60,000 bases of DNA from Schmidtea polychroa (lineage: Eukaryota): NCBI GenBank assembly GCA_044892525.1, contig CM097885.1, positions 23,066,001-23,126,000 of the forward strand. The letters are read 5' to 3'. Made by a program: the position numbers and the translations under genes. The notes under the pieces are model-generated. The model worked only from the letters and a program-made list of their open reading frames with translations, was not told the DNA's origin and did no database searches. The first letter of the stretch is position 1. Each line of letters opens with the position of its first letter. Below are positions 15,901 to 27,900 of the stretch, in pieces.

Positions 15901-18900
15901 AATATTTTAGGTTTTTCACTAATATTTGCGTTAATAATAATAAAGTTTAATGGGTTGTGTGTGTAAACCATATTTTAGATTTTTCGTTAACAATAATAAT
16001 AATAATAATAATAATAATAATAATAATAATAATAATAATAATAATAACTCCCGTGCGTGTTAATACTTTAAAAGAAAATATTGAAAATTTAAAAAATAAT
16101 AATATTTATGCAAAGCATGTGCAATAATTATGTCTTTGTTAATTAAGTAAACTTTAGTGTCAAAATAAGTTTTTAAAATATTTTTAAATTTAAAATACCG
16201 CAACTTAATATATTTTTGTCCTACCCCTTCATTGATTTAAGTTGGTCAGAATTTAATAATAATTATATTATACCCTTTGAGACATGTTGAATGTGAGTAG
16301 TACACCTTTGACCATTACCCATATGAGCAATACCCATAGAGGGATAGAATATTTTGTCGGATAGATTAAGAGTATATATGATAATAATATAATAATAATA
16401 ATAATAATTTACGACATATTGAGTGTGAGTGTAAAAATATTTTATGTTTTTGACTAATATTTGTAATAATAATATTATTAATAATGATAATAATAATAAT
16501 AATAATAATAATAATAATAATAATAATACTTTGAAATGTATGTTGTAGTGAGCACACCACTAATTATATGAGTTGAGCGTATATTTAAAGAATAATATTT
16601 AGAATTTCTTTGTTAAAGTTTTGTCTTGATTATTTTTAGTAGTAACTTTGTGAACAGTACCCATGTGACTTGTTGAGTGTGAGTAGTACCCTTGTGTGCA
16701 GTACCCATAGGGGGACAGAATATCTTGTCGGATAGACTCGGTGTATATATGATAATAATAATAATAATAATAATAATAATAATAATAATAAAACTTAGAA
16801 AATAATAATATGTAATCAACGATTTAAACAAAATTATATTATTACGTATTCGATAATTAAAACAAAAGAATTATATAATCAATGATTTAAACAAAATTAT
16901 ATAATCATCGATAATTAAAACAAAATTATTAGTTCTAAAAATATTAGGCATCGTTCTAAAAATATGACGTAATCGTTCTAAAAATATTAGGCATCGTTCT
17001 AAAAATAATAGGCATCGTTCTAAAAATATTAGGCATCGTTCTAAAAATATTAGACATCGATTACGTAATAGTCCTAAAAATATTAGGCATCGTTCTAAAA
17101 ATATCGTAATCAATCTAAAAATAATAGGCATCGTTCTAAAAATATTAGGCATCGTTCTAAAAATATGATGAGTCATTGTCTTTGTTCTAAAAATGTGATG
17201 AGTCATCGTATGATAAAAATATTAGGCATCGTTCTAAAAATGTGACGTAATCATTCTAAAAATATTAGGCATCGTTCTAAAAATATTAGGCATCGTTGGG
17301 TGAGTCATTGGGTGAATCATTCTCCTTGTTAATATTAATGATGTTGATACCTTCAATAGCTCATTCGAAAGGTCTTGGACCGAGCTTTAAGATGAGGTAT
17401 CGTTCAATAAATTCAGATGATGGAAACATTAATTTTTGGGATGAAAAAAAAGTAGGTCACCGCTGGACCAATTAATAATATTTTGAATAATAATAATAAT
17501 TTAACGTTGAAAAGATGGTGGTCATCAATTGTTAATAACATTAAAACTATTAAAGATATATAAGATACCTATAGCTCATTCGAAAGGTCTTGGACTGAGC
17601 TTTAAGATGGGGTATCGTCCAATAAAATCTGTTGGCGGGAACATTAAATTTTGGGATGAAAAAAAGTAGGTCACCGCTGGACCAATTAATTTAAAAAAAT
17701 TACGTAATAGTTCTAAAAATATTAGGCATCGTTCTAAAAAAAAAAAAAATTTTTCAGACCGGGGGGGGAGGGGGTATATGTGGCCTGGCGGTGACCTGGT
17801 CTGGCGGTGACCTGGTCTGGCGGTGACCAATCATACTACTGTCATAATTGACCCCCCTTATGTAATAATTGACCTTTGGCCTCTTACGTCATAATTAACC
17901 TTTGACCCCTTCCATAATAATTGACCTTTGATATCTTACATAATAATTATACTTCATTAGAGTAGTGAGGATTATAAACCAAGCCAAATATCCCTGGAAA
18001 AAATTCAATACATTTTGATAGAGTAGTGAGAAGTAAGGAGTATAAACCATGCCAAATATACAGTATTGCGTAATATTTGTATGTGTACCCTGAGGGGGTA
18101 TGGTATTACATAATTCTGTATAATTTTAATATAGATATATATATTTATTGAATTATAAACATGTATAAGAAAAAGTCATACATACATTTTTGAACCCGAG
18201 TACTATAATGATGACAATGAATGTGATAAACACTCGGTTATAATTAACACACAGATAATAATAATAATAATAATAATAATAATAATAATAATAATAATAA
18301 TAATAATAATAATAATAATAATAATAATAATAATAATAATAATAATAATAATAATAATAATAATAATAATAATAATAATAATAATAATAATAATAATAAT
18401 AATAATAATAATAATAATAATAAAACCTTTTAATAACTAAATTGTTCACAACAATAAAAACTTTGACTATTTCACAATAACAACGTAAAAGGCAAATGAT
18501 ATTGATAAAAATTTTAAAAATTATATAAAACATATTATTTCAAGTTAAATACATCTGTGTGGTATGCTTTACGCATTTCAGCTAATAAGATATGGACTGA
18601 TTGATCCCTTTTAAAGTCGTGACAGCATGGACACCATTGGGGCATGACAATCTCATAGAATCTTTGCAAACAATGCAATTTTCAATGCATCTAGTGTCAG
18701 ACCTTAGAACCATATCGTAGTGCAACTATAAAAGTTGTTCTATATTAATACCTGTTAAACGAAATATTTTATTTATAAGTAACTCTGGTGTACAATAATC
18801 TATGGTATTTCTTATTCCTGGGTATAATTCTTGAAACTTCTTTAAAATTACTTCAAATAAGTAAACTAGATATAAAGATTATTAATTATAAATAAAAATA

Positions 18901-24900: not shown

Positions 24901-27900
24901 ATTAACTTTATTATATCCGAATTTACTTGTTTCTCCATCTTTTTCACTGAACTTTCTAGAATAATAATTAAGCAATACTAGATAATGATAATAAAATTAC
25001 TTTTATATTGTTGCATCAGTAAATATAATAATTTCATGCACTCAGTATATATATATTAATTTTAAAAATCGAGTTGACCAATTAGATTCTTTTTAACAAA
25101 TCATTTTAATTTTATTGGATGAAAGATTTTATGTGTGTGTATAGTATTTTTGATTTTTTAAATATTTATTTCTAATAATCAATTTGTGATGTTCATATAT
25201 TCATTATCATATATTCATTTTTTATTTATAATGCAATCCTTTGATAATTTCTTTTGAAACTTAGGTATCTTATATCCAAAGATTTGTAATTCTTCCTTTC
25301 ATGACAAAGATTGTCATAAAACTATGGAAAAATACTATGGCCAACCACATAACCGTGTTATTTATTTTGTCTTCCCCATTTGTAATTCCACTGAAAAATT
25401 AAATTATTCTAACTTTTATGATCAACATAAAGATCATTTATATCGATTTAATCTTTTAAAGAAAAAACAAATTTTTAAATTACCAATTAATTTTTCAATT
25501 AATACAAGGAAATCTGATTTGCCTATAAGTAACCCTCGTCCATCTAAAATTAAAAATTTAAATAATAATGATCAAATTATTATTCTCTCGGATTTTGAAG
25601 ACGATGATGTAGTTTTAAATAATATGGTAACTCTTCCTGATTTTGAAAATGATGTGGATATAGATTTTCTATCTGACTCTCAAAATGGAGTTGATATAAT
25701 AACTCTTTCTGACTCTGATGCCGAAATAATTAATGATAGTACGATACAATATGGTGGATCATTAGAACCGGTTGTAAATTATGATTTACGTAAATCACAT
25801 GCCATAGTTAAAATGATGGTTGAAAATTTAAATTTAAATTCTTTAACCGTACCTACGCCCTTAATTAATAAATTTAATAATGTTACCAGAGAATTGGGTT
25901 CTGTAAAGATTCAATTTTGTATCGAAGTGGAATTTGAAAAAGATGGAGAATTTCAATCTTTCGTCCTTTCAAATTCTGCAAGACCCATGAGTGATACCTT
26001 TTTAGATGAAGGTATTGCTATTCTTAATGAGAAAATTACTTTAATTAATGAGAAGGGAAGTAATTGGATTATTAATAAAATTAAAGAAATACATTTTGTT
26101 ATTACAAAATTTTCTCAAATAAGTAGATTGAGTGGGAGGGGTTCTCTTCCAACTCCTAAATCATTATTAAATAAACATTGCGTAATAAATATCAACAATA
26201 CGGATGATTTGTGTTTCATCTATAGCATTTTGGTTATTTTGAAATACGATGACGTTGATGGCAATCATAGAAATCGAATTAGTAATTATAATCTGTCTGA
26301 TCTAGTCTTTGATCCTTCTGACTTACCGATGCGTCTCTGTAATATACCTAAATTTGAAGATAAAAATCCAGGGCTTTCGATTAAAGTTCTTGCATACGAT
26401 GAGGATGCTTTAGTGGATATTTTAAATAATTCTGAAGTATTAAAACATCCTTATGTTGACATCATACATAGATCGAAAGTTGTAGGTGGAAGACCGATTA
26501 ATTTAATTTTGTTGGAAATCAGTGATTCTTTTCATTATATAGGAGTCACTAATCTTGATAGACTTTTAAATTGTCGTAATTTCTACTGTTACTAGTACTC
26601 GAATTCAAAGTCTGTGGTGTAATCGCTGTTTAAATGGCTTCCGTACACTTGAATCTTTAGATAAACATAAAGGTTTATGTGAGAAAAATCAATTAGGAAC
26701 AACTTTATATACTTTACTATTAAATAAGAATTTATATTTTAATGATTGGTCTAAAACAGTTACTCCCCCTTTTGTGGTTTACGCTGACTTTGAGGCTATC
26801 TTACCTACTGATAATAGATACTTTCAAAGGCACTTGCCGATTTCTGCAGGTCTTTTGCTAATAAATAATTTCACAGGGACTAAATTATATAAAAGTTTTT
26901 TAGGGTTAGATTGTATTGTTAGTTTCCTTAAAGAGATTGAAAAAATTGGTATGAAAACAGTTTTACCTTATTTTTATAAAAATTCGAAAAAGAAAATTAT
27001 TTTTACAGATGCTGACCTTATTTCTTTTTCTTCCGCAGTTATGTGTTATCTTTGCAAGAAAACTTTAGTAAACCCGACTCAAGATCATGATCACTTTACT
27101 GGTAAATATTTGGGAGCAGCTTGTTCAACTTGTAATAATTCTCGTCAAATAAGATATGAATTTCCAATTGTTTTCCATAACTTGCGAGGGTATGATCTTC
27201 ATCATATCCTCAAATACGGATTGAGTAGCTTTAAATCTTGGAATATTTCATGCATTCCAACGACAACTGAAAGGTTCTTAACATTATCTGCGAGAATAGG
27301 TGGTTTAAATATTAAATTAATCGATTCCTGCCAATTTATTAAGAGTTCGTTAAATGACGCTGTTAAAACTTACTAATTTACCGATAACACGATCAGAATT
27401 TAGGGGAACCATTGTTAATAATAAAGGAATTTTCCCATATAATTTTGCCACTAGTCTAGAAGTGCTTCGGTCAACTCCCACAATCTCGAATAGTAAGTAA
27501 AAATCATCAGTTATTTACATTAAAAAATATAAAATTAGCCCTGACTAATAATGATGATAAGAGGCATTGGGTAAATAAAAATGAAAGTGTAGCATATGGT
27601 CATTATAAAATAGTTAACACGGTTATGGGTAATAGTAACAATGCTGAAGTTAGTGATCCGGACGAAGAAAATGATCAATATGTTCATCCATATTTCCCAA
27701 ATGATGATTATGGTCACCCACACTTTCCATATGAAAGGGAACATCAATATGTTCTTGAACGAATTTTGTATTGAAATAAAATTTATTTAATATAATTATT
27801 GTTTTAGTTCTTATTTGTATCATTTACATTTTACGTTGTTATTGTAAAGTATTCTTTAGACTATTTTATTGTGAAATAGTCAAAGTTTTTATTATTATTA

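Follow-up and report, generated by a model that had tools for sequence, protein, structure and literature searches.

The question raised by this locus is whether the short segments that interrupt the genes of a Polinton are spliceosomal introns and, if so, whether their removal serves the element as a switch. The locus was analysed within a window of 60,000 nucleotides of Schmidtea polychroa DNA (GCA_044892525.1, contig CM097885.1, positions 23,066,001 to 23,126,000), taken from an A+T-rich genome of 781 Mb; coordinates are those of the window unless another locus (L plus number) is named. The whole insertion, decayed and containing nested pieces, occupies 9711–31611 (no strand assigned) within an intron of a host gene that is TRPM-type by Pfam TRPM2. 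The left terminus at 9711 starts with AG, the right end at 31611 matches it with two mismatches, and a 6-bp duplication flanks the element at 9705–9710 and 31612–31617. The element has terminal inverted repeats with AG...CT ends and a 6-bp target duplication, and two sister copies each show a duplication of their own.

A retroviral-like integrase was recognized by Pfam rve above the cut-off, with a chromo match (E 0.0025) in exon 2 of a sister, and an adenain-type protease by Peptidase_C5, also above the cut-off. The protein-primed B polymerase is represented by a fragment matching DNA_pol_B_2 below the cut-off (E 5.5e-4) and the packaging ATPase by a weak Pox_A32 match (E 0.0097). The major capsid reading frame, considered as a double jelly-roll protein, was without a match in Pfam and scored 0.98 in Atlas to clusters, one of which carries PF21738 (DJR-like) on 15% of its members. 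By its integrase, protease, polymerase fragment, ATPase, core and TBP-like matches, together with the capsid-like reading frame, the termini and the duplication, the element is a Polinton.

The TBP-like gene (Pfam TBP) lies on the minus strand at 18964–19409; it is frameshifted in the window copy and a single reading frame in L092 and L078. The plus strand carries the ATPase (19499–20118), frameshifted here and continuous in other copies, a core-protein-like gene (20310–20636; Adeno_PX, E 1.5e-4, below the cut-off), integrase exon 1 with the first two catalytic Asp residues (20721–21165), integrase exon 2 (21209–21386), the major capsid gene as one reading frame (22130–23356), a protease remnant (23390–23719) and the polymerase body (25265–27774), placed by its Pfam match and by comparison with sisters. 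Comparison with sister loci shows that exon 2 was shortened by a 1.13-kb deletion at 21379–21386, which removed the 3' half of the integrase and the 5' part of the minor capsid gene. Another deletion, near 23393–23395, took the 5' end of the protease with its phase-2 intron, and the polymerase body contains stops, frame changes and a deletion near 27478–27484. A Penelope-like RT/GIY-YIG insertion with 601-nt inverted arms lies near the right terminus (27986–30948, plus strand). With this insertion, and with the TBP-like gene, ATPase, integrase, protease start and polymerase broken, the window copy is dead.

A preliminary description of the sequence had listed four GT-AG introns of 43, 45, 50 and 45 nt, namely 21166–21208 in the integrase, 18866–18910, 24742–24791 and 24956–25000. 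The last three lie on the minus strand, the first of them in a gene here designated A and the other two in a gene here designated B. All four were recovered at these positions, each starting with GT and ending with AG, with an A+T content of 82–95%; the list itself proved incomplete, the protease intron and the polymerase leader introns having been overlooked. Their resemblance in size to host introns was borne out by five introns of the TRPM-type gene, read by eye as 47, 46, 44, 47 and 52 nt. The segments thus have the GT...AG ends, A/T-rich interiors and host-like size of U2-type introns. The unspliced integrase frame does stop at 21182. The integrase segment was also said to split the catalytic motif; it does interrupt the Gly codon of D-x-G-x-E-F in phase 1, two residues past the second catalytic Asp, but that codon is not itself catalytic, on the D,D,E reading of the motif that we assume. 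Comparison of the integrase with solved structures gave no match.

GT..AG segments of this size are common in this DNA: 9.3 kb of the element contain 80 candidate starts on one strand and 105 on the other. The intron assignment therefore rests on comparison of position and phase across families. Contigs assembled from four runs, possibly of DNA, showed 20 joints over 18500–25300, and none of the 15 listed falls at the four introns. Two contigs of these possibly genomic runs, one in X1 (20390–21241) and one in X2 (21146–21386), cross the integrase segment without a gap, which for such runs is neutral as to splicing. A further candidate intron, which would connect the core gene with the small reading frame preceding it, was rejected by eye because the frame does not fit.

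Sister copies were sought among 1743 candidates, of which the 40 best were scored and 30 loci taken, one being the window itself; this is a biased, top-scoring sample. The integrase segment was present in 29 of 29 sister loci, with GT..AG intact in 28. A copy-specific insertion is ruled out by these 29 sisters and by the same junction in other families. Junction patterns allowing a gap of 31–60 bases matched the genome 469 and 123 times, and the interiors among the matches listed are of at least five different types. The cross-family alignment called for in the preliminary description gave conservation of both position and phase: these intron-bearing families are about 70% identical to the window in DNA and share its codon and phase, with different interiors. 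A conserved position and phase with a diverging interior is likewise what is expected of a U2-type intron. On this comparison the integrase segment is inherited rather than copy-specific.

Other states of the junction were also found. A gap of 2–30 bases gave 22 matches, 14 without an insert and 8 with remnants of 15–26 nt that are probably too short to be spliced, which indicates that many copies decay freely. The junction without any gap occurred at 104 genome sites in several co-resident families. In L033, L035, L047 and L075 the interior of the integrase intron is a pure TAT repeat of 21–54 nt, and the shortest of these introns probably lie below the host's splicing minimum. Retention of the intron in the TAT-repeat families is in frame and free of stops (four of eight loci translated).

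A copy as decayed as that of the window might show a similar picture if the segments were disabling insertions, or microsatellites grown in a dead element, and were never spliced, given interiors of pure TAT repeat with variable length and the abundance of chance GT..AG pairs. Such events would have to preserve codon and phase, as well as both GT and AG, across metagenome relatives and families that are 70% identical, and the carrier families number hundreds of copies; this explanation is barely credible. The evidence from DNA that the segments are spliceosomal introns is strong and supports that assignment well, and we infer their splicing from it.

The intron deleted from the window's protease was found in seven of seven other loci. 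It is 36–41 nt long, in phase 2, and stands directly after the start codon (for example L092 7400–7440 and L101 5603–5641); three more families carry it as well. In every locus that has it, the unspliced protease would consist of a start, one residue and a stop. Among 14 metagenome loci with a protease match, five have the intron; the more distant loci mostly start the protease without it, and two are ambiguous. The metagenome relatives with the protease intron have an intron-free integrase.

The polymerase reading frame opens at a conserved AG acceptor, immediately preceded by in-frame stops, in the window, in all seven other loci viewed and in three more. Upstream, a phase-1 donor closes a gene of short exons in six loci (the window, L092, L078, L084, L094 and L082); this leader was not seen in the stretches viewed of L088, L077 and L090. 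In the window the predicted leader exons (23887–23934 and 23982–24147, plus strand) are separated by a 47-nt GT..AG intron at 23935–23981, and a predicted phase-1 intron of 1117 nt (24148–25264), bounded by the conserved donor and acceptor, leads to the polymerase body. Splicing at this junction would yield a Cys codon in every family whose donor is visible, and a spliced leader on the polymerase is likely from these comparisons. In L078, L094 and L082 the donor shares bases with a stop. Adenovirus E2B polymerase mRNA takes its start from one or more distant small upstream exons, and the predicted leader, also made of upstream short exons, would resemble it, although adenoviruses do not integrate. 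Acidic stretches with hydrophobic-acidic repeats, which may be akin to SUMO-interacting motifs, occur in the polymerase N-terminus and leader (window 25580–25740, L078 8540–8620, L094 8300–8370). The polymerase acceptor and the protease intron are retained in families whose integrase has no intron, and the introns of these two genes are therefore likely to predate that of the integrase.

Gene A is a small Cys-rich gene with no Pfam match and Atlas scores of at most 0.84. Its 45-nt phase-1 intron (18866–18910) follows just after its start, the first exon being 18911–18920. Its pattern was found in six of seven loci (L076 missed); position and phase agree in L092, L078, L094, L080 and probably L082, and also in L201. 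Gene B lies antisense inside the predicted 1117-nt intron. Its second intron (24742–24791, 50 nt, phase 0) has the same site in L092, L076, L094 and L080, where the acceptor is mutated (pattern in five of five loci), and also in L199, and its first (24956–25000, 45 nt, phase 1) has counterparts in L076, L094 and L080 (pattern in four of five, L092 missed). Position and phase are kept in homologues of genes A and B that are just 32–43% identical. The gene B homologue of L078 looks intron-free. The capsid, core, ATPase and TBP-like genes had been described as lacking introns, and they are indeed continuous in the other copies viewed, apart from copy-specific breaks.

We consider it probable that these are ordinary inherited spliceosomal introns removed routinely by the host, and that the intron-bearing families depend on splicing for their integrase without using it as a switch. 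Polinton genes would be transcribed in the nucleus and spliced by host machinery, which would remove all of these introns as a matter of routine, and the intron-bearing families would need that machinery to make integrase. The preliminary description had proposed instead that the integrase intron gates integration or that introns mark early as against late genes. Retention does end the integrase of the window family before the catalytic Glu. The early/late division fails because the maturation protease itself carries an intron, probably the oldest one and likely older than that of the integrase. A gate is hard to reconcile with 104 intron-free sites in several families and with stop-free retention in the TAT-repeat families; a regulated switch of the P-element type, in which retention would truncate the enzyme in all families, is at odds with the same stop-free loci. 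In those loci a retained segment would place a run of hydrophobic residues beside the catalytic Asp, which would probably inactivate the integrase as well. Because families with an intron-free integrase have spread too, a gate or switch is unlikely, and taken together with the early/late division it is very improbable.

The distribution of introns among the genes bears on another possibility. The integrase, protease and polymerase carry introns and the ATPase, capsid and core genes do not, a pattern that pure chance gain would not predict. Inefficient or regulated splicing might set dosage, limiting the supply of integrase, protease and polymerase and leaving the capsid and core proteins, whose genes have no introns, to be made in bulk, by analogy with splicing and dosage control of the P-element and Gag/Pol kinds. 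The absence of introns from the TBP-like gene as well, the immediate stop in the unspliced protease and the overlap of leader donor and stop noted above are consistent with it. The spread of families lacking the integrase intron speaks against it, as do the ATPase, an enzyme and yet intron-free, and genes A and B, which are not known enzymes and of which the L078 gene B homologue appears to have no intron. We regard dosage control as unlikely but conceivable, and retain routine host splicing as the preferred reading.

How the integrase intron came to be present in some families and absent from others was examined in metagenome relatives and in trees. Among 80 metagenome loci, 67 span the integrase motif, 61 of them gap-free and 6 with gaps of one or two residues beside it; no intron-size insert was seen at the motif in any of the 67 (the motif is not covered in the other 13). 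Each tree used single natural pieces from one side of the junction, and the protein tree comprised 17 of 31 genome loci (those with at least 100 open residues) and 16 of 120 database proteins. In it the window family and family H share a clade with two families that lack the intron, separate from the second intron-bearing clade, and at least two changes are needed (AU p 0.035 against a single intron-bearing clade). Two DNA trees need two and three changes (AU p 0.16 and 0.024, with long-branch warnings). An earlier, smaller tree had suggested a single loss only. A single gain without loss was rejected, as the intron-bearing rows never formed one clade in the three trees (AU p 0.035, 0.16 and 0.024).

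Since the intron-bearing families do not form one clade, parallel gain or repeated precise loss is called for. On these trees the history would be one of three: two gains at one base, one gain with repeated exact loss, or recombination. A direct repeat stands at both intron ends, with 11 of 11 bases in family H and 10 of 11 in the window family. The integrase intron may have originated at a ready-made splice-like site, and such a short direct repeat would facilitate its gain by duplication as well as its exact loss. A bolder scheme would have two independent gains at the same base of D-x-G-x-E-F and would bring the enzymes stepwise under splicing (protease, polymerase, then integrase) with an intron-free capsid, so as to set the enzyme-to-capsid ratio; we think it rather doubtful.

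Comparison with described elements places these introns as follows. Vertebrate Mavericks/Polintons share the terminal inverted repeats, 6-bp duplication, polymerase, integrase, ATPase, protease and capsid, and according to the accessible part of the report the genes of intact elements have no introns (PMC8097293), unlike the integrase, protease, polymerase leader and accessory genes here. Nematode Mavericks, in the part of the preprint available, have the same core set and contain intron-bearing genes, but their introns lie in host-derived cargo and the core genes are intronless (10.1101/2022.07.12.499685); here the core genes bear them. Dinoflagellate eupolintoviruses, likewise Polinton-like proviruses with intron-generating sequences, carry introners that the accessible text describes as mostly young, repeated and transposon-derived (PMC12166617), whereas here positions are conserved and interiors differ by family and between the sites compared. 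Ginger1 transposases have integrase-like genes with one to four GT-AG introns at conserved positions, as far as the available text goes (PMC2836005); these are simple cut-and-paste elements without polymerase or capsid, and the likeness is general, not position by position. The accessible portions of two further reports describe group I introns in Polinton-like viruses (PMC12220804) and derepression of planarian Polintons upon PIWI knockdown (PMC8532177). No report of spliceosomal introns in animal Polinton core genes was found in a search of mainly open-access papers; the accessible parts of PMC8502044, PMC6431247, PMC5718144, PMC11296320, 10.1101/2023.08.22.554363 and 10.1101/2024.03.25.586562 contain nothing on the subject.

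Surveys based on intact reading frames would call these families dead and mis-annotate their integrase, protease and polymerase. The conserved introns imply that the elements would be transcribed in the nucleus by a host polymerase. Families that live in the same genome, run to hundreds of copies and differ in whether an intron stands at one base form a compact natural test of intron gain and loss.

Several nested or neighbouring pieces were also noted. The left terminal region contains a large palindrome (10317–17698) whose arms are 98–100% complementary and whose constituent repeats look like the ends of a different Polinton family. Old relics of another Polinton's major capsid gene lie in the same host intron region at 5454–5760 and 7330–7520 and are 74% identical to 22088–22204. 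The single-repeat TBP-like gene (18964–19409) also occurs in the metagenome relatives L102, L105 and L119 at 47–49% identity, and an extra TBP-like relic at 45177–45471 is 72% identical to the gene of the sister copies.
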